14,435 nt of DNA from a virus, in UHGV virus genome UHGV-0124609. One strand, 5' to 3'. Below, one piece after another: positions 1 through 13,813 of this stretch. The notes beneath the pieces were generated by a model. It saw only the letters and a list, made by a program, of their open reading frames with translations. It searched no databases and was not told where the DNA came from. The translations under genes were made by a program, and so were the position numbers. The stretch's first letter is position 1. Every line of letters starts with the position of its first letter.

Positions 1-119
1 GGTACTTTGCCTAAGTACGCCATCTCTTCCATCAGGTGCGCACCGGACGGCGCACGTAACAGCCATAGCGCCTCCGTGTTATCCCGCCTGTCAACGGCGC
101 GGTAGAGTTGGTAAATCAT
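1..119 (-). CDS. possible N-terminal part of a leftward gene running off the left window edge (hypothetical protein); strand assignment uncertain
   Basis: ATG is the reverse complement of 117-119, preceded by a GAGGG SD-like (revcomp of 128-132, 8-nt spacer). The minus frame is open for 39 codons to the window edge (MIYQLYRAVDRRDNTEALWLL...). Plus-strand frames are also open here, so this could instead be the 3' end of a rightward gene. Confidence 0.25.
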   Translation of the reverse strand, partial: MIYQLYRAVDRRDNTEALWLLRAPSGAHLMEEMAYLGKV

Positions 120-137
120 ATTTCCGACCCTCAGTTA

Positions 138-157
138 AAGCGGCCCGAAGGCCGCCT
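138..157. terminator. GC-rich stem-loop (GCGGCC-CGAA-GGCCGC) between the stop of the 160-aa gene and the left-edge ORF; possible intrinsic terminator
   Basis: 6-bp perfect GC stem at 140-145/150-155 with a tetraloop; on the minus-strand RNA the loop reads UUCG and is followed by UUUAA. The U-tract is short, so efficiency is uncertain. Confidence 0.4.
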
Positions 158-161
158 ATAG

Positions 162-644
162 TTATTCTTCTTCGAAATACTTGTTCTTGATTGCCGTCAG
201 GCGTTCCAGGTACTCGGCCAGGTCTTCGTCTTTAATCGCGGTAATCTTCATCTTCTTACCGGTGAACTCTTCCAGCAGTTCGTCGGAATCATCACACGCG
301 GCATCGCTAGGACCTTCGTTAATCGCATCGTCGATAGCCTGAATCTGGCCACGAAGAGACTTGTAATCGACTTCTTCTTTCTCTTCTTCCGGCTCTGGCG
401 TCGGTTCCTCTACTTTAGCTTTACGCGGCTTGCGTTTTGGCTTCTCTTCTTCCGCCGGTTTGGTGTCAACGATGTCTTCACCTTCGACCGGGATTTCTTT
501 TGTTGTCTCGATTGTTGCGGTTTGTTCAACGACCCCGGCGACTAATGCAGTTTTTGCAACATTAACTTGTTTTGCACTGTTCGCAGCAATCAGTTCATGT
601 GCAACTACGAAACGTTCCAGTAATTTTAAAAATTGTTCTAACAT
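162..644 (-). CDS. hypothetical acidic protein (160 aa) with a Lys/Pro/Glu-rich low-complexity linker and acidic C-terminus (…KYFEEE)
   Basis: Complete ORF in the six-frame track; ATG (revcomp of 642-644) preceded by a strong SD GAGAGGAGAG (revcomp of 649-658); near-consensus sigma70-like promoter upstream. Translation has a structured N-terminal ~45 aa, then KPAEEEKPKRKPRKAKVEEPTPEPEEEKEE, then an acidic C-terminal domain. Confidence 0.8.
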   Translation of the reverse strand: MLEQFLKLLERFVVAHELIAANSAKQVNVAKTALVAGVVEQTATIETTKEIPVEGEDIVDTKPAEEEKPKRKPRKAKVEEPTPEPEEEKEEVDYKSLRGQIQAIDDAINEGPSDAACDDSDELLEEFTGKKMKITAIKDEDLAEYLERLTAIKNKYFEEE

Positions 645-675
645 TTGTTTCTCTCCTCTCGTTTGGTATGGGCTA

Positions 676-705
676 ACTATAATAGCTAACTATTCAGGTT
701 GTCAA
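676..705 (-). promoter_or_regulatory. sigma70-like promoter for the leftward 160-aa gene (TTGACA-N18-TATAGT)
   Basis: On the minus strand, -35 TTGACA is the revcomp of 700-705 and -10 TATAGT the revcomp of 676-681, with an 18-bp spacer; predicted start lies about 25 nt upstream of the ATG at 644. Confidence 0.55.
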
Positions 706-720
706 TGGGCTTTCCTAAAA

Positions 721-745
721 TAATTAATATGGTACTATTCACATA
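721..745 (+). promoter_or_regulatory. candidate promoter -10 region (TACTATTCAC) for the rightward HTH gene
   Basis: TACTAT at 733-738 followed by TCAC is the same -10/discriminator sequence found in two other rightward promoters (4158-4167, 5424-5433). No good -35 at 17-bp spacing here, so this may be activator-dependent or weak. Confidence 0.3.
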
Positions 746-769
746 TCAACTGACTAAGGAGTAATTGAC

Positions 770-985
770 ATGCAACCATCTGAACTAGGCATCCGTGTAG
801 AGCAACGCCGCAAAGAACTCGGCATCTCTCAACGCCGTCTGGCGGTCCTGGCTGGCGTTTCCCAGGGCGCGATTAATCAGCTGGCGCTCGGTGTAACTCA
901 GGACGTACGCCCGGCAACACTGTTCAAGCTGGCGGAAGTGCTGGAAGTAGACGCCAAGTGGCTGGCGTTCGGTGAAGGGGCTTAA
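770..985 (+). CDS. XRE-family (Cro/CI-type) helix-turn-helix transcriptional regulator, 71 aa
   Basis: ATG 770 with SD AAGGAG at 756-761 (8-nt spacer). Translation contains a classic HTH signature LGISQRRLAVLAGVSQGAINQLALG. It is the only rightward gene in a leftward block, diverging from the 160-aa gene. Confidence 0.85.
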   Translation: MQPSELGIRVEQRRKELGISQRRLAVLAGVSQGAINQLALGVTQDVRPATLFKLAEVLEVDAKWLAFGEGA

Positions 986-1000
986 GCCCCTTTCTTTTTA
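975..1000. terminator. intrinsic terminator: perfect 18-bp palindrome AAGGGGCTTAAGCCCCTT followed by a T-rich tract, between the convergent HTH and primase genes
   Basis: Palindrome at 975-992 (7-bp GC-rich stem, TTAA loop) followed by TCTTTTTA at 993-1000; overlaps the stop codon of the HTH gene. The T-tract is on the plus strand, so termination is mainly for the rightward transcript. Confidence 0.6.
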
Positions 1001-1001
1001 C

Positions 1002-3242
1002 CTATTCTAAATCCTCCTCTGTCACCACCAGCATTTCATTCGGCTCATATATCGTCTTTGGTCTTAATCTGTCACCCATCTTTTCCGGTATCCGGTAGGT
1101 GCCCGGTATAACTTCACCGTTAACATCGCACCCTAACATCAACTCACCGTCTTTCAGCATCTTCTCGAGATGATGGTTGGTTATGGCGTGGTCGCCCGAA
1201 TTCGCCACTATCTGCCGTTGTGTAAAACCTCGTCCGGTGTCGTCTGACTGTTGCAGGTCCTCCAGCGCGGCAAGTATTGATTCCTTACGCCCTTCATCCT
1301 TTCCACGTTTTACAGCGTTCTTTACGTTTTCTTTACCTTCTTTCGTCAGCCCTTCTTCCCGCTCTTTCTCCTCGTCAGTTTTGAACGGCTCGAAACCCCA
1401 CGGCATCAGCACAAGCGCCTTGTGCGGCTCAGGCAGGTCCAGGTTTACGATTGTGCCGTATTCCTCTGTGCTACCCAGGAACTCAACCGCACGGTACTCT
1501 TTCGGCGGTGGTGCTTCACGGAACTGTACCGACTCCAGCACCATGCCAACCGTCTTCTGTTGAGGCCCGTGCTTAAATTTAGAGTGGTATACGTTTATCT
1601 GACGGTCGGTAGCGCGTTCAATTGTCAGTTCCACGTCAACGCCCGCATACAGCGCGCCGCTGCCACGGGCTTTCTTTCCGCCCTTCGGTGTGTGGTGAAC
1701 AACACCTACCGCGGCTTTAGTCGCATCACGCACTTCTTTCAGGATGGCGATAACTTTACCCATACCGATTGCCGTTGATGAACTGTTCTCGTCAAACTTA
1801 TCAATCGTCAGGGCCAGGGTCTGGTTGAGGGTGTCAAACGCGACCATGCCGATAGGTTCATCGCCAGCGGTTTCACGCATTAACTTAATCAGGTTTTTCA
1901 GTTTTCCGACTTCGCCCATGTCGATGACATGTACATAATCTTTACCTTCCTCTCCGTATTTAGCCGCGAGTGCATCAATACGTGTGCGGGTAGCCGCGCC
2001 ACCCTCACCGTCGATATAGAAATGGTGACAGCGCTGGGTATCCGCCCCTGCGAAGCGATAGCCAGCGGCGCTAAGGTACATCACCCCCAGCGTATAGAAT
2101 GATTTGTACGTGCCAGATTCTCCGACGATATCCCAGATACAATCCGACGGCATGTACCCTTCTACGACGAAATCAGCCTTTACCGGTTCTGGTAATTCGT
2201 CCTCCTCGAAGTCCTCGTCGTCTTCCAGGTCGTCCAGGCTGCATGAAACGGATTCACGCGCACCCCATCCGATAGCCTCAGCCACTTCACTAAACGGCAG
2301 CCCGGTCGCGTCGCACGCATACTTCCACACCTCTTTCGGTGACATGCCTTCGGTTGCCGTAATGTCGGTGTCGTGAATCATGGTTACGTTCGGTGCTTCG
2401 TAGCCCTCTCGCGGGAAACACAGCAGGAAGTCGTCCGGCCGCGGTGTCGGGTCGCTGTAGTTTTCCGCATGTTCTGGTGTGGCGGGCATCTTAAGGCCGC
2501 GAGGTGTCATGACACCGCCGTACTCAAAAGCCAGTGCCTCGAACGCGTCTGTAAACGCGGTGCGCAGTTCTTCCGGTATCTGGTAATCCGATGCGCTGCT
2601 CACCTCGTAATCCGGGATGCCTTCCAGTAACTCATCCGGGTCAATCAGGTCGTTGCGACGCGACCAGATAACCTGAGAGCCAACCGGCGGCAGGTACATC
2701 GGTTGGGACAGAGTAAACCCGCTGCGGTCAGCGCCCATGCCTTTGAAGAAGTGCTCCAGCAATCCATGACGAACACGGATGATGTCGCCACCCTCAACAG
2801 GACTGGCCAGCGGCATGACGACACGAAAGCGCGGAGACTCATCGGTATGGGATGCCGTGGTATATAGGCACATCGCCTGGCGGCTGCGCTTAACCAGGCG
2901 CACAGCTTCCTGATACTCTTCCGGCGTTGCACTGTCGAAGTCCAGATACGCCAGCGACGATTTGCTTACAGACGCATCACAGCGATAGAAGAAGCCTTTA
3001 CGCGCTTGCTTAAAGTCGCCGGTTTCCAGGTCTTTTACGGTGCTGTGAGTAGAGTCGCACGCGGCGGTGATATATCCCGGCGCGGTCTTCGGGTTAATCC
3101 CGTCTCGGACAGAATCGAGCGGCTGGATTAACTCTTTCAGGTCGTCCAGTGTTGCCGTGTGTGTAGTTCTGACGTTTATATCCTTTTTCTCTGCTCGCGC
3201 GTTGCGGCGTGACCACGAGTAGGATAAAATTACATCGGACAT
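1002..3242 (-). CDS. putative replication primase/helicase (N-terminal primase-polymerase-like region plus a RecA/DnaB-like P-loop NTPase region), 746 aa
   Basis: Long complete ORF; ATG (revcomp of 3240-3242) preceded by SD GAAGGA with an 8-nt spacer. Translation contains a P-loop-like motif IVGESGTYKSFYTLG and a Walker B-like hydrophobic stretch ending in D (GMVAFDTLNQ), an acidic linker (DDLEDDEDFEEDELPE) and an acidic C-terminus (…VVTEEDLE). Family assignment is from motif pattern only. Confidence 0.85.
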   Translation of the reverse strand: MSDVILSYSWSRRNARAEKKDINVRTTHTATLDDLKELIQPLDSVRDGINPKTAPGYITAACDSTHSTVKDLETGDFKQARKGFFYRCDASVSKSSLAYLDFDSATPEEYQEAVRLVKRSRQAMCLYTTASHTDESPRFRVVMPLASPVEGGDIIRVRHGLLEHFFKGMGADRSGFTLSQPMYLPPVGSQVIWSRRNDLIDPDELLEGIPDYEVSSASDYQIPEELRTAFTDAFEALAFEYGGVMTPRGLKMPATPEHAENYSDPTPRPDDFLLCFPREGYEAPNVTMIHDTDITATEGMSPKEVWKYACDATGLPFSEVAEAIGWGARESVSCSLDDLEDDEDFEEDELPEPVKADFVVEGYMPSDCIWDIVGESGTYKSFYTLGVMYLSAAGYRFAGADTQRCHHFYIDGEGGAATRTRIDALAAKYGEEGKDYVHVIDMGEVGKLKNLIKLMRETAGDEPIGMVAFDTLNQTLALTIDKFDENSSSTAIGMGKVIAILKEVRDATKAAVGVVHHTPKGGKKARGSGALYAGVDVELTIERATDRQINVYHSKFKHGPQQKTVGMVLESVQFREAPPPKEYRAVEFLGSTEEYGTIVNLDLPEPHKALVLMPWGFEPFKTDEEKEREEGLTKEGKENVKNAVKRGKDEGRKESILAALEDLQQSDDTGRGFTQRQIVANSGDHAITNHHLEKMLKDGELMLGCDVNGEVIPGTYRIPEKMGDRLRPKTIYEPNEMLVVTEEDLE

Positions 3243-3299
3243 ATTATAATTCCTTCAGCAAGTAATTTGGCCTCGGCGCTCTAACGTCGGGGCTTTCTT

Positions 3300-3533
3300 T
3301 TATTCCAGGTCTTCTAAAGTAGCGGTCATTCCGCGAACTTCAGCGACAGCACTATATTTCCCGCCGACATTTTTCACGACACCGGATTTAACCAACACCT
3401 TCAATGACCCTTCAATGATGGCGGAACTATAGTACTTAAAATAACTGCGGCGCAAGTCGATAACACTGCACGACCCTTTTTTACGTGTTAATGAAACGAC
3501 CGCCGTAAATACGCGTGACTGGAACTCGGTCAT
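3300..3533 (-). CDS. hypothetical small protein (77 aa), possibly winged-helix DNA-binding; translationally coupled to the upstream AlpA-like gene
   Basis: Complete ORF whose start overlaps the stop of the upstream gene by 4 nt (ATGA). The assignment of a winged-helix fold is a weak guess from the pattern SLKVLVKSGVVKNVGGKYSAV. C-terminus …TATLEDLE resembles the primase C-terminus. Confidence 0.7.
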   Translation of the reverse strand: MTEFQSRVFTAVVSLTRKKGSCSVIDLRRSYFKYYSSAIIEGSLKVLVKSGVVKNVGGKYSAVAEVRGMTATLEDLE

Positions 3534-3700
3534 TTCACGTTCTCCTTAATCCACGCTTCCACTTTCTCCGGGTCAAACGTACCTGGCTGCCGGCGGCCCA
3601 TAATGCGGGTACAGCAATCAGGGAACTTCCCGCTCTTTAACCAGTTATTCAGCGTGCGACGAGTAACCCCGATGCGCTCTGCTACTTCATTCTGCGTCAT
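3530..3700 (-). CDS. AlpA-family-like HTH DNA-binding protein (phage transcriptional regulator/excisionase-like), 56 aa
   Basis: Translation MTQNEVAERIGVTRRTLNNWLKSGKFPDCCTRIMGRRQPGTFDPEKVEAWIKENVK matches the AlpA/HTH_17 pattern (HTH, then FP, then a conserved W). ATG at the revcomp of 3698-3700 has SD GAGGG with a 7-nt spacer; the ORF track's longer form starts at TTG 3727 with no SD. Confidence 0.8.
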   Translation of the reverse strand: MTQNEVAERIGVTRRTLNNWLKSGKFPDCCTRIMGRRQPGTFDPEKVEAWIKENVK

Positions 3701-3732
3701 TCTCAAACCCTCATTATCAGTTAACAAAATCG

Positions 3733-3761
3733 AGTATACATTGCGAATAATGGGAAATCAA
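3733..3761 (-). promoter_or_regulatory. sigma70-like promoter for the leftward AlpA/primase operon (TTGATT-N17-TATACT)
   Basis: On the minus strand, -35 TTGATT is the revcomp of 3756-3761 and -10 TATACT the revcomp of 3733-3738, with a 17-bp spacer; about 30 nt upstream of the ATG at 3700. Confidence 0.5.
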
Positions 3762-4041
3762 ACATAATCGCACCTATTGACATTATGAAAATCTTCGTTT
3801 AAGGTGCTTCTATATCTTAGTTACTTTGATTCTTGTTCACCTTGTAAACCCCGCCGAAAACGAGCGCCCAACGCGAAGTGTTAGGCGGCAGTTTACTGAA
3901 CATAAGAATTATCGTAACTTTCCTTCCTTAATATCTCCGGTTGCCCTGGGCAAGCTCTATTCTCATCGGCAGCATATCTCTTAAGTAACTGATTTTCTTA
4001 ATGTACCGTAGATTCACAACCGTAAAAATGTAACCCTTACC

Positions 4042-4065
4042 GGGCAGGCTTAAGGCCTGCCCTTT
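4042..4065 (+). other. stable stem-loop (GGGCAGGC-TTAAG-GCCTGCCC) followed by TTT within the non-coding region; possible terminator of a small transcript or structural element
   Basis: 8-bp perfect GC-rich stem at 4042-4049/4055-4062, 5-nt loop, then TTT at 4063-4065. No plus-strand ORF lies upstream of it. Confidence 0.3.
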
Positions 4066-4134
4066 AGTTACCAAGTAATAAGAATAAAGGCACAACCCTA
4101 CCTGAAGAATCACAACGGCAATGTAACTATTCTC

Positions 4135-4163
4135 TTGCACACCCCAACATAATAGGATACTAT
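4135..4163 (+). promoter_or_regulatory. promoter TTGCAC-N17-TACTAT driving the rightward early small-gene block
   Basis: -35 TTGCAC at 4135-4140, 17-bp spacer, -10 TACTAT at 4158-4163; identical hexamers and spacing recur at 5401-5429. The ATG at 4198 lies about 30 nt downstream. Confidence 0.5.
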
Positions 4164-4197
4164 TCACTTATCGAAACGAGACATAAGGAATTTAGAA

Positions 4198-4416
4198 ATG
4201 AACAAAGCGACCGCAAGCGTAGTTTCCGCAATCAAAGAAGTTTACGGCATCGATATTTCAGAGCGCGTAATCATCGGTAATAAGCGCAACTTCTTTACGT
4301 TCGACACCGACGGAATGGATGAAAATGATTTTATCAACGTACAACGTTTCGCTAATGATAGAGGGCTTCGTAACGAGCCTGCAGGTTACAAGAAATTCGC
4401 TATCTACTTTAAATAA
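4198..4416 (+). CDS. hypothetical protein, 72 aa
   Basis: Complete ORF; ATG 4198 preceded by a purine-rich leader (AACGAGACATAAGGAATTTAGAA); first gene downstream of the 4135-4163 promoter. Confidence 0.8.
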   Translation: MNKATASVVSAIKEVYGIDISERVIIGNKRNFFTFDTDGMDENDFINVQRFANDRGLRNEPAGYKKFAIYFK

Positions 4417-4899: not shown

Positions 4900-5094
4900 A
4901 TGAGCCCGTATAACAAATTTCGCTTACGCCGTCTTGTTGGTGGTCTGCGCGCCGCCGAGTTTGGTGTTGAATGTTGGGAAAAGGCGAAATATACCCCATG
5001 GAAGTCGTGGCATTTGGTTCATGCTAAGGCGGTAGCACAGTACCGTGAGTACAAGTTAAACAGTTTCCTTAAGCACCACGGGGTTGAGTTATGA
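4900..5094 (+). CDS. hypothetical protein, 64 aa
   Basis: ATG 4900 with SD GGTGGAGG at 4887-4894 (5-nt spacer). In-frame alternative starts at GTG 4870 (SD GAGGGAGG), ATG 4885 and ATG 4834 cannot be excluded. Confidence 0.65.
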   Translation: MSPYNKFRLRRLVGGLRAAEFGVECWEKAKYTPWKSWHLVHAKAVAQYREYKLNSFLKHHGVEL

Positions 5095-5252
5095 GAGAAG
5101 CATTTGAACGGTGGGCCGTCGTAGAGGGTCTGCCGGTTAACAAGGGTTCGAAGAAAGAGTACCTGACCGTTAAGACACGTCTTGCGTGGCGGGCGTGGAA
5201 AGCTGGTGTGCAATTTCGTGCTGGTGTAACAGGTGGTGTAACAGGTCAATAG
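5091..5252 (+). CDS. small hypothetical protein, 53 aa (not in the ORF track)
   Basis: ATG 5091 overlaps the upstream stop (ATGA); frame open to TAG at 5250-5252. Translation MREAFERWAVVEGLPVNKGSKKEYLTVKTRLAWRAWKAGVQFRAGVTGGVTGQ; the C-terminal GVTGGVTG comes from a tandem repeat. Confidence 0.5.
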   Translation: MREAFERWAVVEGLPVNKGSKKEYLTVKTRLAWRAWKAGVQFRAGVTGGVTGQ

Positions 5253-5274
5253 GTTACTATTTGTCTTTGTGTCT

Positions 5275-5333
5275 TACGCTGCTACACAGCAGCGTACAAC
5301 TTTAACTTAGTGTCGTCAAAAGGCGACACTTTT
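5275..5333 (+). terminator. pair of stem-loops after the first early-gene block; the second is followed by TTT(T)
   Basis: Hairpin 1: 9-bp perfect stem at 5275-5283/5288-5296 with a 4-nt loop and no U-tract. Hairpin 2: 7-bp stem at 5309-5315/5324-5330 with an 8-nt loop, followed by TTT at 5331-5333. Confidence 0.35.
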
Positions 5334-5400
5334 CACCAAACGCAACAATCGAAGCGACTATTGCAGGAGATGCAACAATACAAACACCAATAAAATTTAC

Positions 5401-5429
5401 TTGCACACTGGGATAGAATAGACTACTAT
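5401..5429 (+). promoter_or_regulatory. promoter TTGCAC-N17-TACTAT with an AT-rich upstream element
   Basis: -35 TTGCAC at 5401-5406, 17-bp spacer, -10 TACTAT at 5424-5429; AT-rich CCAATAAAATTTAC immediately upstream; ATG at 5461 lies 32 nt downstream. Confidence 0.55.
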
Positions 5430-5460
5430 TCATTTACACGAACGAGAGGATAGACAGAAG

Positions 5461-5610: not shown

Positions 5611-5872
5611 AAGATACACCGTTACCGTTGATTTTGAGGGGCTGGATTTGCCCCTCCCCAACAACTACCGGTATATAACCCGTGACCGTTTCGGGTTTAT
5701 TCAGGGGTGGCGTAACAAGCCGACAGACACTGAGTTCGGGATGTCGGGTGGTGAAGAGTTGCCGATCACGTTCGGGCACCAAAGTAGTAACGAAGAGCTT
5801 AAAACTGTGATTCGTAAGTATCGTCGCCGGGGTAAAACTGAACTTATCGCAATAACAGGCGCTGTTGAATAA
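5600..5872 (+). CDS. hypothetical protein, 90 aa
   Basis: ORF 5594-5872 in the track (TTG); the first ATG is at 5600 with a GGGG SD-like upstream. Confidence 0.75.
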   Translation: MNFRRYTVTVDFEGLDLPLPNNYRYITRDRFGFIQGWRNKPTDTEFGMSGGEELPITFGHQSSNEELKTVIRKYRRRGKTELIAITGAVE

Positions 5873-5891
5873 ACGAGAGGAGAGACGGAAG

Positions 5892-6320
5892 ATGAGTAAC
5901 AAAAACGAAGTATTCGAGTACCTGATTGACCAGCTACGGCAGCAGGTAAATAAGAAAGATGTGACATCTTTCAATGTATCTGTGCAGATATCCGACCTTG
6001 ATGAGGTCAAGCAGGTAGTCCACAACCTACAGCAGCATATCGCAGGTAAGGATGACGAAATACGTGCGCTGAAAGACAGTTTACGGCAGCAGGTAAATAA
6101 CAACCAGTGCGAAGACCTGGCGCATGAGGTGCAGTCACTTAAGAATCAGTTACGTGATGCGTCGGCGCTGGTGGCTGAGTTGCAGAAAGAACTTGATGTC
6201 GCGAATAGCACCGTAGCTCGTTTGAGTAAAGAGGGGGTACAGAGGTGCAACCATGTTTGGTACAGGTACAACTTAGGCGGCTACACTAAGATGTGCCTTA
6301 AATGCGGGCTAAAGAAATGA
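5892..6320 (+). CDS. coiled-coil protein with a C-terminal Cys/His cluster (putative zinc ribbon), 142 aa
   Basis: ATG 5892 preceded by AACGAGAGGAGAGACGGAAG (the track's longer form starts at TTG 5865 inside the previous gene). Translation is heptad-like and Q/L/K/E-rich, with a repeated LRQQVN segment and C-terminal CNHVWYRYNLGGYTKMCLKCG. Confidence 0.8.
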   Translation: MSNKNEVFEYLIDQLRQQVNKKDVTSFNVSVQISDLDEVKQVVHNLQQHIAGKDDEIRALKDSLRQQVNNNQCEDLAHEVQSLKNQLRDASALVAELQKELDVANSTVARLSKEGVQRCNHVWYRYNLGGYTKMCLKCGLKK

Positions 6321-8277: not shown

Positions 8278-8298
8278 TCTATTTTCTGTAATGACTAG

Positions 8299-8328
8299 TT
8301 GACTATTACCTACGACCCTACTATATTT
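8299..8328 (+). promoter_or_regulatory. sigma70-like promoter (TTGACT-N18-TATATT) for the 8361-10328 block
   Basis: -35 TTGACT at 8299-8304, -10 TATATT at 8323-8328; the AACGAGA leader motif at 8339-8345 and ATG 8361 follow. Confidence 0.5.
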
Positions 8329-12259: not shown

Positions 12260-13741
12260 ATGTTAACTATGAACGGTCAGAATCAGGGTGTTAAGACCAA
12301 ACACCGGGAATGGCTGCATCACTTCGATAAATGGCAGAAGGTGCGACACGCCCTAGAGGGTGACCTTATTCGCTATCTCCGTAATGTTGGGAAGAACGAG
12401 CCTGACCCGGCCTACGCAGCACAGCGCCAGGAAGAATACGAGAACGGTGCTATTTGCTACAACTTCACTAAACGTACCCTGGCAGGGATGGTCGGTAGTG
12501 TCATGCGCAAAGACCCTGAGCAGATTATCCCACCTGAACTGGAGTACCTGTTACATAACGCTGATGGTTCCGGTGTCGGGCTGTGGCAGCACGCGCAGGA
12601 TACGCTGATGGAGATTGACTCAGTGGGTCGTGGCGGGTTGCTGGTGGACGCGCCGGAGACAGCCGCGGCAACTGCGGCAGAACAGAACGCAGGGTTATTA
12701 AACCCGGTCATCGCATTCTACACCGCAGAGAACATCATCAACTGGCGACTGACACGCATCGGTTCAGTTAACCGCGTGACGATGGTCGTGCTGCGTGAGG
12801 TATGGGAATACTCAGAACCGGGCGCAGAGTTCGAAACAAAGTTCGGCGAGCAATACCGTGTCCTTGACCTGATTGACGGTCGCTACCGTCAGCGCATTTA
12901 CCGCTTCGATGCCGAAGGTGGTGCTCAGGGTGGAGTAATCGAAATCTTCCCGAAACTAGGCGAACAGTTACGCGGCAAAATCCCGTTCACGTTCATTGGG
13001 GCGAGCAACAACGACGCCACTATCGACGATGCACCTTTGCTACCGTTGGCCGAGCTAAACATAGGGCACTTCAGAAATTCGGCTGATGTGGAAGAGGCCA
13101 GCTTTATAGTAGGCCAACCGACACTGTTCATTGCCCCCGGCGAGAATATGAGCATGGAGCAATGGAAAGAAGCCAACCCCCACGGCATCCGCATGGGGTC
13201 GCGTTCAGGGCATAACATCGGCTCCGGTGGCAATGCGTTTCTGGTTCAGGCGGCGGAAACTAACCTCGCCAAGCAGAACATGCTGGATAAAGAGAATCAG
13301 GCCATCCAGATTGGCGCGCAGCTTATTACTCCGACGCAGCAAATCACCGCAGAATCGGCCCGCCTGCAACGCGGCGCTGATACGTCAGTTATGGCGACAA
13401 TCGCACGTAACGTAAGCATGGCGTATACCGATGCATTGCGCTGGGTGGCTGCGATGCTTGGATTGCGCGAGGGAACAGAGATTGAGTTCAAACTGAACAT
13501 GGAGTTCTTCCTGCAGCCCATGACCGCTCAGGACCGTGCACAGTGGATGGCGGATATCAACGCTGGCCTGTTACCGGCTACTGCTTATTACGCGGCATTG
13601 CGTAAGGCGGGGGTGACTGACTGGACCGACGAGGATATCCAGAACGCTATCGAAGACGCGCCGCTGCCGTTAAGTGCTGTTACTCAGGTGGCAGGAGAGA
13701 TTCCGCAGTCGGCGCAGCAACAACAGGAAGCCGCCCAGTAG
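12260..13741 (+). CDS. putative portal protein, 493 aa
   Basis: Large ORF directly downstream of terL and upstream of a head-morphogenesis gene, which is the canonical order. ATG 12260 with SD AAGAGGA (7-nt spacer). The assignment rests on synteny and size; no specific motif was recognised. Confidence 0.7.
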   Translation: MLTMNGQNQGVKTKHREWLHHFDKWQKVRHALEGDLIRYLRNVGKNEPDPAYAAQRQEEYENGAICYNFTKRTLAGMVGSVMRKDPEQIIPPELEYLLHNADGSGVGLWQHAQDTLMEIDSVGRGGLLVDAPETAAATAAEQNAGLLNPVIAFYTAENIINWRLTRIGSVNRVTMVVLREVWEYSEPGAEFETKFGEQYRVLDLIDGRYRQRIYRFDAEGGAQGGVIEIFPKLGEQLRGKIPFTFIGASNNDATIDDAPLLPLAELNIGHFRNSADVEEASFIVGQPTLFIAPGENMSMEQWKEANPHGIRMGSRSGHNIGSGGNAFLVQAAETNLAKQNMLDKENQAIQIGAQLITPTQQITAESARLQRGADTSVMATIARNVSMAYTDALRWVAAMLGLREGTEIEFKLNMEFFLQPMTAQDRAQWMADINAGLLPATAYYAALRKAGVTDWTDEDIQNAIEDAPLPLSAVTQVAGEIPQSAQQQQEAAQ

Positions 13742-13754
13742 TAAGTTCACATAT

Positions 13755-13776
13755 AGCCCCGAAAGGGGCTTTCTTA
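13755..13776 (+). terminator. stem-loop AGCCCC-GAAA-GGGGCT followed by a T-rich tail after the portal gene; possible partial terminator or attenuator
   Basis: 6-bp GC stem at 13755-13760/13765-13770 with a GAAA tetraloop, then TTCTTAT. Confidence 0.45.
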
Positions 13777-13813
13777 TAGTATGCTATTAACTTTAGCACC
13801 ACAGGGTTTATCT

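Follow-up and report, generated by a model that had tools for sequence, protein, structure and literature searches.

The operators of phage 434 are 14-bp dyads of the ACAAG-N4-CTTGT type, the outermost adenine of which is read by Gln28. The sites of C1 from phage P1 and of gp71 from mycobacteriophage L5 ('stoperators') are asymmetric, are dispersed and maintain lysogeny, those of L5 acting within transcription units. Here we describe a 14-bp palindrome, AATAG-N4-CTATT, found in a 14,435-nt stretch of the virus genome UHGV-0124609 (this whole stretch is referred to as the window), which belongs to a Kagunavirus (Guernseyvirinae), a lytic siphophage of E. coli. Two copies, a perfect one (O_L) and one matching at 9 of 10 bases (O_R), lie in the divergent control region at 645-769, between a leftward gene for a 160-aa acidic protein and a rightward gene for a 71-aa helix-turn-helix (HTH) protein resembling 434 Cro, and further copies occur in promoter-like positions elsewhere. 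The palindrome is very probably a protein-binding operator, a call that we regard as fairly safe from the sequence; that a dimer of the Cro-like protein represses through it both the leftward promoter (PL) and its own promoter appears, on balance, the more plausible account.

When bases 1-3300 of the window were compared with databases, about 440 phage records were matched, the best of them E. coli Kagunaviruses with ~91% identity, and the Salmonella Jerseyviruses, likewise Guernseyvirinae, appeared as more distant matches. The 71-aa protein was assigned to HTH_3 (Pfam PF01381, E 2.3e-12, score 47.2 bits, cut-off 23), and its best phmmer match in the PDB was 434 Cro, which also has 71 aa (E 5.4e-7, residues 6-68). 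A single-sequence AlphaFold2 (AF2) model, with a predicted local distance difference test (pLDDT) score of 84, placed five helices at residues 5-17, 21-28, 32-39, 48-57 and 62-66, and its top Foldseek match was 2cro, with a template modelling (TM) score of 0.73-0.79. In its sequence and its predicted fold the protein is, like 434 Cro, a single-domain five-helix HTH protein. Where the recognition helix begins (SQ...), the protein keeps the Gln that corresponds to Gln28 of 434; the position of Gln29 in 434 is taken by Gly or Ser, and the half-site differs from that of the 434 operators in its second base. This comparison of recognition helices is compatible with binding to the palindrome but proves nothing.

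The sites themselves also resemble those of 434, as the candidate 14-bp dyads have conserved outer bases and a free centre, overlap early promoters including that of the regulator, and appear graded, with one perfect copy and one of 9/10. In contrast to 434, the half-site is AATAG instead of ACAAG, two sites 45 bp apart are found at a divergent promoter pair instead of three in tandem, and about ten sites, here predicted from sequence, are dispersed over the genome instead of being gathered into two operator clusters. A CI partner, an integrase and an immunity region are also lacking in this strictly lytic phage family: neither CI nor integrase or lysogeny genes were present among the annotated genes of the relatives, and two Kagunavirus genome papers (PMC9825357, PMC7203180) report that none were detected. 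Because CI and lysogeny features are absent, the protein would act like 434 Cro but outside the lambdoid immunity switch. As with P1 C1 and L5 gp71, one small regulator with many scattered short sites would coordinate several transcription units, although the sites are symmetric here and lie inside core promoters, in a lytic phage without a lysogeny module.

The initial annotation of this DNA had proposed 645-769 as a divergent control region, and both promoters were found to be correctly placed in it. The coordinates given for PL (-35 TTGACA at 705-700, an 18-nt spacer and -10 TATAGT at 681-676) were all correct, and this promoter, with 11 of 12 consensus matches, was the best promoter-like site in 1-3300. 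The rightward TACTATTCAC element was confirmed at 733-742, in a region contained in O_R, and the extended -10 box of the HTH promoter lies 32 bp before the ATG at 770, without a good -35. A tandem GCTAACTAT repeat was also present as described, in two exact copies at 672-680 and 685-693 separated by 13 bp start to start, the first of which overlaps the leftward -10 box. The annotation had taken these two direct copies as the operator, in which case each would be bound by one HTH subunit.

The evidence available makes this last proposal very improbable. An exact 9-mer direct repeat within 30 bp appeared in ~2% of dinucleotide shuffles of 645-769 (~4% for a repeat anywhere in the region), so that the repeat alone is only mildly unusual. 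No further exact copies of GCTAACTAT were detected anywhere in the window, and a search allowing up to one mismatch added to the two known copies just one match at chance level, whereas the palindrome recurs. The repeat was then compared in 16 loci drawn from the whole range of identities in a BLAST search with 600-800 (nine Kagunavirus loci, window included, and seven Jerseyvirus loci). The conservation that such an operator should show in relatives keeping the same gene pair was not found: the two copies matched at 9/9 in only 2 of the 16 loci, those of the window and of phage SZH-1, at 6-8/9 in the seven other Kagunaviruses and at 4-5/9 in the seven Jerseyviruses, which have the same gene pair. 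Thus, being degenerate or absent in these relatives, the tandem repeat fails as the operator unit. In the seven other Kagunaviruses the second copy was usually GCGAACTAT and the first began with ACT, GTT or TCT; over the relatives the first three bases of copy 1 varied (ACT, GTT, TCT, AAG), and AACTAT was invariant. The variable positions were therefore those shared with neither the palindrome nor the -10 box, and dimers of 434-type HTH proteins read inverted, not direct, repeats. What stands of the annotation is its wider suggestion of a repressor site overlapping both promoters, which is the best reading of the region.

The origin of the repeat can be followed on the transcribed strand of PL, which reads AATAGTTAGC-TATT-ATAGTTAGCCC. 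The first ATAGTTAGC combines the left arm and the centre of the candidate operator, and the second joins the -10 box to the bases that directly follow it. The ATAG present in both copies is forced by function, and the following TTAGC matches only in the window strain and in SZH-1. The repeat is thus apparently the outcome of a palindrome arm (ATAG/CTAT) that resembles the adjacent -10 core, with the next five bases matching by chance.

In contrast to the 9-mer, the palindrome was clearly in excess. It was searched as AATAGNNNNCTATT, with the 10 specified bases of the 5-4-5 design being scored, and it is contained (at 681-694) in a longer repeat flagged by a repeat search (TAATAGCTAACTATTCA at 680-696 vs. 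TAATATGGTACTATTCA at 725-741). Four exact copies (681, 4151, 5248 and 5417) and three with one mismatch (726, 8294 and 13775) were found in the window, compared to a block-shuffle expectation of 0.0 and 0.4, respectively. None of 300 dinucleotide shuffles contained four copies of a 5-4-5 palindrome, whatever its arm; the exact AATAG palindrome had zero copies in 297 of them and at least one in 3. Among the arms of 5-4-5 palindromes, AATAG ranked first in the window as well as in SZH-1 (seven copies) and in the Jerseyvirus FSL SP-101 (five copies). Counting exact and near sites, 7 + 4 were detected in SZH-1 (44 kb) and 5 + 3 in FSL SP-101 (expected ~0.1 and ~1), scattered over both genomes in many copies as in a dispersed repressor regulon, and 2 + 2 in the Serratia phage Tsm2 and 1 + 9 in the Enterobacter phage phiEap-2 (expected ~0.03 and 0.6-1). 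In these last two phages, both of which keep a Cro-like gene, the sites lie at homologous promoters. An all-against-all search for 20-mers in SZH-1, unbiased and similar to PHIRE, recovered the palindrome family as the top repeat other than terminators, and every exact site of this phage preceded a non-structural gene or gene block by 30-80 bp, in a fitting orientation. The features of the window are collected in Table 1.

Table 1. Coordinates of promoters, palindromes, repeats and neighbouring genes in the window.
Feature	Coordinates	Strand	Remarks
160-aa acidic protein gene	162..644	-	Open reading frame (ORF); first gene behind PL
Repeat copy 1	672..680	+	Complement of the PL -10 box plus bases just downstream
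-10 hexamer TATAGT of PL	676..681	-	Invariant in 16/16 loci
O_L, perfect 14-bp palindrome AATAG-CTAA-CTATT	681..694	.	Fills PL spacer; centre near -18.5; candidate operator
Repeat copy 2	685..693	+	Inside O_L: last base of left arm, centre, four bases of right arm
-35 hexamer TTGACA of PL	700..705	-	TTGACA in Kagunaviruses, TTGCAT in Jerseyviruses; spacer 17-18 nt
O_R, AATAT-GGTA-CTATT (9/10)	726..739	.	Covers spacer and -10 of HTH promoter; centre near -12.5
Extended -10 TGgTACTAT, HTH promoter	730..738	+	TACTAT 733-738 after TGg 730-732
71-aa HTH_3, 434-Cro-like protein gene	770..985	+	Ribosome-binding site AAGGAG 756-761
Intrinsic terminator	974..993	+	Closes single-gene HTH transcript; abuts 3' end of helicase-primase gene
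Helicase-primase gene	1002-3242	-	
77-aa ORF (ORF77)	3300-3533	-	No Pfam match; overlaps HTH_17 gene
65-aa HTH_17 (excisionase-type) protein gene	3530..3727	-	Pfam HTH_17, E 2.9e-7
Type A promoter TTGCAC(4135-4140)-17-TACTAT(4158-4163)	4135..4164	+	Perfect AATAG-GATA-CTATT 4151-4164; upstream of ORF from 4198
Perfect palindrome AATAG-GTTA-CTATT	5248..5261	.	At stop codon of ORF 5091-5252; no clear -35
Type A promoter TTGCAC(5401-5406)-17-TACTAT(5424-5429)	5401..5430	+	Perfect AATAG-ACTA-CTATT 5417-5430; upstream of ORF from 5461
9/10 palindrome ACTAG-TTGA-CTATT	8294..8307	.	After endolysin terminator, upstream of small-gene block
9/10 palindrome TATAG-TATG-CTATT	13775..13788	.	Weak candidate; just after terminator, between two structural genes

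When the 16 loci were examined for the palindrome, O_L scored 9-10/10 in all of them despite a variable centre of 4 bp (CTAA, CGAA, TGAA, TACT, TACC), and O_R was identical in the nine Kagunavirus loci (9/10) and scored 8/10 in the Jerseyviruses. The intergenic DNA of the two genera is otherwise ~70% identical, and the columns invariant across both were AACTATAAT, CTAT, the CAA of the -35, the TACTATT of the rightward promoter (in all 16 loci) and the ribosome-binding site. A comparison across sites gave the same picture, as centres of CTAA, CGAA, TGAA, GATA, GTTA, ACTA, GGTA, TTAG and CAGA were found between arms that stay at 10/10. Among the other sites of the window, the promoter at 5401 has its homologue in SZH-1 at 6135, and the site at 8294 has homologues at 2718 in SZH-1 and at 39122 in FSL SP-101. 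In Shashou (1560-1709), XY1 (1570-1797) and MET_P1_001_43 (1544-1801) an extra small gene lies between the 160-aa gene and the control region, and the block of promoter and candidate operator remains beside the HTH gene.

The palindrome was found in two registers with respect to the promoters. In type A (TTGCAC, 10 nt, AATAGnnTACTATT), represented by the promoters at 4135-4164 and 5401-5430 and by O_R at the HTH promoter, it is centred near -12.5 and covers the -10 TACTAT as well as the spacer. Type B promoters (TTGACA, 4-5 nt, AATAGnnnnCTATT, ATAGT) have it centred near -18.5, where it fills the spacer and shares its last T with the start of TATAGT, and its characteristic flanks (at..ca) run the other way with respect to transcription; PL is of this type, as are the SZH-1 sites at 13247 and 17051, upstream of a gene for a protein like the single-stranded DNA-binding protein (SSB) and of the next replication block. 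A scan of IMG/VR with the type B signature, AATAGNNNNCTATTATAGT, returned more than 120 loci, many of them on contigs of 40-47 kb, as long as Guernseyvirinae genomes; the rest were taken to be chance hits. As both registers lie inside the core promoter, occlusion is indicated as the way in which a bound protein would act, and the shift of register together with the flip of orientation shows the palindrome to be a module distinct from the promoter hexamers. The one base at which O_R departs from the palindrome, G to T at 730, supplies the TG of the extended -10 box, which looks like a trade between the strength of the promoter and that of the candidate operator. The symmetry of a bidirectional promoter was considered as a cause of the dyad and rejected, as the centre is not palindromic and yields a -10-like hexamer on just one of the strands.

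Some further sequences are shared downstream of these promoters. A leader/ribosome-binding context, AACGAGAGGAG, precedes several starts (653-663 on the minus strand, 5441-5451 and 5872-5882 on the plus strand); it has two exact copies, is not significant at two mismatches, and is read as a shared ribosome-binding context only. Type A promoters also have ATCGAAACGAGA in common downstream of the -10 box. The sharing of AACGAGAGGAG and ATCGAAACGAGA suggests that whole promoter-leader cassettes were duplicated.

The above results point to a model in which 645-769 would consist of back-to-back host sigma-70 promoters with one 14-bp dyad operator each, with PL serving the 160-aa gene as well as the replication and recombination genes that follow it. 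A dimer of the 71-aa protein, for which the candidate target sequence is AATAGCTAACTATT, would bind O_L and O_R and block RNA polymerase (RNAP). The perfect O_L would be filled first and the weaker O_R, a candidate autoregulatory operator, at higher concentrations, so that the protein would limit its own synthesis. With the operator present in about ten promoters genome-wide, the same protein would serve as a general switch that turns down the non-structural genes of a phage without a lysogeny module. What the analysis shows directly is the motif, with its symmetry, excess, conservation and placement in promoter-like sites, together with the fold of the protein; the binding, the identity of the binder and the repression are inferred. 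We know of no E. coli or Salmonella host factor with the AATAG-N4-CTATT site.

Several observations weigh against the Cro-like protein as the repressor. Between Kagunavirus and Jerseyvirus the Cro-like proteins share only 51% identity and have different recognition helices (SQGAINQL vs. SQSLITHL), although the core motif is the same. Cornellvirus-type phages VSiA and PhiSTP2 have a Cro-like gene (TQSAISHL) but no site with 0-1 mismatches, and an all-against-all repeat search of PhiSTP2 returned only terminators and no other promoter-associated repeat. The two genera richest in the motif are precisely those that have the HTH_17 protein. In coarse RNA sequencing (RNA-seq) data of the Kagunavirus K1B4, with sparse time points, gene 004 (the Cro-like gene, 3386-3601) was classed as 'middle'. 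Finally, the right arm CTATT overlaps the -10-like TACTAT/TATAGT, so its conservation is partly due to promoter function.

With regard to the Cornellvirus-type phages, the recognition helix of VSiA and PhiSTP2 is close to that of the Jerseyviruses, and their PL homologue is degenerate (AATAC-TAAA/TAAG-CTAAT, 8/10). The core motif is kept in Kagunavirus, Jerseyvirus, Tsm2 and phiEap-2 despite differing helices and is missing in the Cornellvirus-type phages. In PhiSTP2 and VSiA (~19,850-20,000) direct repeats, either ACTAA-ACTAA or ACTAAGCTAA, are found in the PL spacer instead, and the helicase-primase gene is inverted, in the same direction as the HTH gene and downstream of it. As for the K1B4 data, gene 005 (helicase-primase) was also 'middle', and a Cro-like gene expressed at that stage would make the repressor switch genes off later and not immediately after entry. 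The data fit a cascade with an initial phase, at the end of which promoters would be turned down by the Cro-like protein, although the time points are too sparse to rely on.

As the right arm consists for the most part of the -10 box, the question arises of whether a dedicated binder exists at all. The motif could be the shared core of paralogous promoters copied for the host RNAP, with an incidental symmetry and a left arm that is just a preferred spacer. Both the PHIRE-type and the all-against-all repeat searches recover the motif as a 'promoter', and type A promoters also have in common the flanks TTGCAC and TCA and the leader ATCGAAACGAGA. However, the sigma-70 spacer from -19 to -15 is normally unconstrained, yet AATAG is found 5/5 at every exact site, and type B promoters carry the same 14-mer in the other register and facing the opposite way. 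Moreover, the plus strand of O_L reads AACTAT, which is not a -10 in that direction, and still the dyad is perfect, and the arms are fixed across genera while the flanks in the spacer diverge. Promoter copying without a binder is accordingly a quite improbable explanation of the palindrome.

The same sequence family has been published under a different name. In the paper on the Kagunavirus fBC-Eco01 (PMC9825357, Table S2), seven 20-mers with the consensus tgAATAGTa-ccTATTat-T, which contains AATAG...CTATT, were described as 'phage RNAP promoters', and one of them, PP5 (GenBank OM272052.1, 34223-34242), is the homologue of 722-741 of the window, the O_R site. A count of seven PHIRE promoters is also reported for VB_EcoS-Golestan (PMC7203180). 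The passages on these promoters in the two papers mention neither dyad symmetry nor overlap with sigma-70 hexamers nor a link to the HTH gene, and the reading of the motif as an operator with a Cro-like binder differs from that report. Although both the paper and the GenBank record list these 20-mers, promoters for a phage-encoded RNAP can be given almost no credence: each site lies within a sigma-70-like -35/-10 frame, and no RNAP is annotated in SZH-1 (81 features), FSL SP-101, PhiSTP2 or Tsm2, as judged from the annotations and not from a profile search of every ORF. The label corresponds to the default reading of the PHIRE tool, which is not evidence, and it is probably a mis-annotation.

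Another candidate binder is the 65-aa HTH_17 protein, an excisionase/MerR-like protein that could act on the palindrome as a repressor or, by binding the spacer, as an activator or as a loading factor that assists the weaker type A promoters, which match the consensus at only 7 of 12 positions and could need help. This protein is 87% identical between Kagunavirus and Jerseyvirus, in keeping with the identical core motif, compared to only 51% for the Cro-like protein, and by tblastn it occurs in these two genera alone (443 records), which also have the most copies of the motif and the most perfect ones. Its own operon promoter (~3761-3733, minus strand, within 3728-4197) carries no palindrome, and in K1B4 gene 008, by position the HTH_17 homologue, was among the four 'early' genes. 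Nevertheless, HTH_17 homologues were detected neither in Tsm2 (tblastn, E up to 10) nor in phiEap-2 (E up to 0.1), nor in the Cornellvirus-type phages, and since Tsm2 and phiEap-2 keep the motif in significant excess at homologous promoters, HTH_17 appears to be dispensable for it. MerR-type activation uses spacers of 19-20 nt, whereas those found here have 17-18 nt, and activators of that type have a dimerisation and effector domain, whereas the HTH_17 protein consists of 65 aa with an HTH only; a palindrome lying over the -10 or within a spacer of this length fits occlusion instead. In addition, the two sites closest to any regulator gene flank the Cro-like gene and not the HTH_17 gene. For these reasons we consider HTH_17 an unlikely binder. 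In a less conventional variant, the palindrome might have two successive readers, HTH_17 early on and the Cro-like protein afterwards.

Regarding the genes around the control region, homologues of the 160-aa gene were found at the same position in all the relatives compared, where they are labelled '13.88 kDa late protein', a label originating from phage MB78; a Pfam search with the 160-aa protein gave no match. The HTH gene is a solitary rightward gene within the long leftward replication cluster, and its terminator (974-1002 region) touches the stop codon of the convergent helicase-primase gene, so that leftward read-through at this point would be antisense to the HTH mRNA. The HTH_17 gene and the overlapping ORF77 form the head of the helicase-primase operon (3300-3727, minus strand); when ORF77 was checked in five relatives, it was present in the Kagunavirus and the Jerseyvirus and absent from Tsm2 and phiEap-2. 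Upstream of them, 3728-4197 is an unusually long divergent intergenic region (470 bp) with hairpins or terminator-like sites at 3865-3887 (minus strand) and 4042-4062 (plus strand) and an isolated half-site, ACTATTCT, at 4126-4133, beyond which small rightward genes begin at 4198.

Two of the more distant palindromes also have an unusual context. Directly before the one at 5248-5261, an exact 12-mer, GGTGTAACAGGT, is present twice in tandem (5223-5246), and after it two strong hairpins (~5275-5296 and ~5309-5330) are followed by UUUU, with a folding z-score of -5.4. The region 5223-5345 could be a pair of terminators plus a stray operator or, alternatively, encode a transcript of ~65-70 nt starting from the TACTAT at 5255-5260; no Rfam family matched it, as was also the case in an Rfam search over the whole window, and the site is absent from SZH-1. 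At 13755-13788 the palindrome TATAGTATGCTATT follows a strong terminator and may be part of an internal promoter/operator of the late region.

Gene control in Kagunavirus and Jerseyvirus is essentially uncharacterised, and the operator reading would correct the record, since at least one published genome paper and a GenBank entry call these sites promoters for a phage RNAP. The mechanism itself, promoter occlusion of the Cro type, is familiar, so the gain would be one of annotation and tractability and not of a new principle. If true, it would also provide parts for engineering: one small repressor, a 14-bp operator, and a strong and a weak promoter chassis. More tentatively, and as a possibility that we rate well below the repression of the two promoters themselves, strictly lytic Guernseyvirinae might run their temporal programme by means of an 'orphan Cro' without CI, which would silence about ten host-RNAP promoters by way of one 14-bp palindrome incorporated in two promoter designs, with graded affinity producing an ordered shut-off and self-limitation. 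Guernseyvirinae are widely used in the biocontrol of Salmonella and E. coli, and the model, if true, would offer a concrete view of regulation in several hundred sequenced Kagunavirus and Jerseyvirus phages that are popular agents for therapy and biocontrol.

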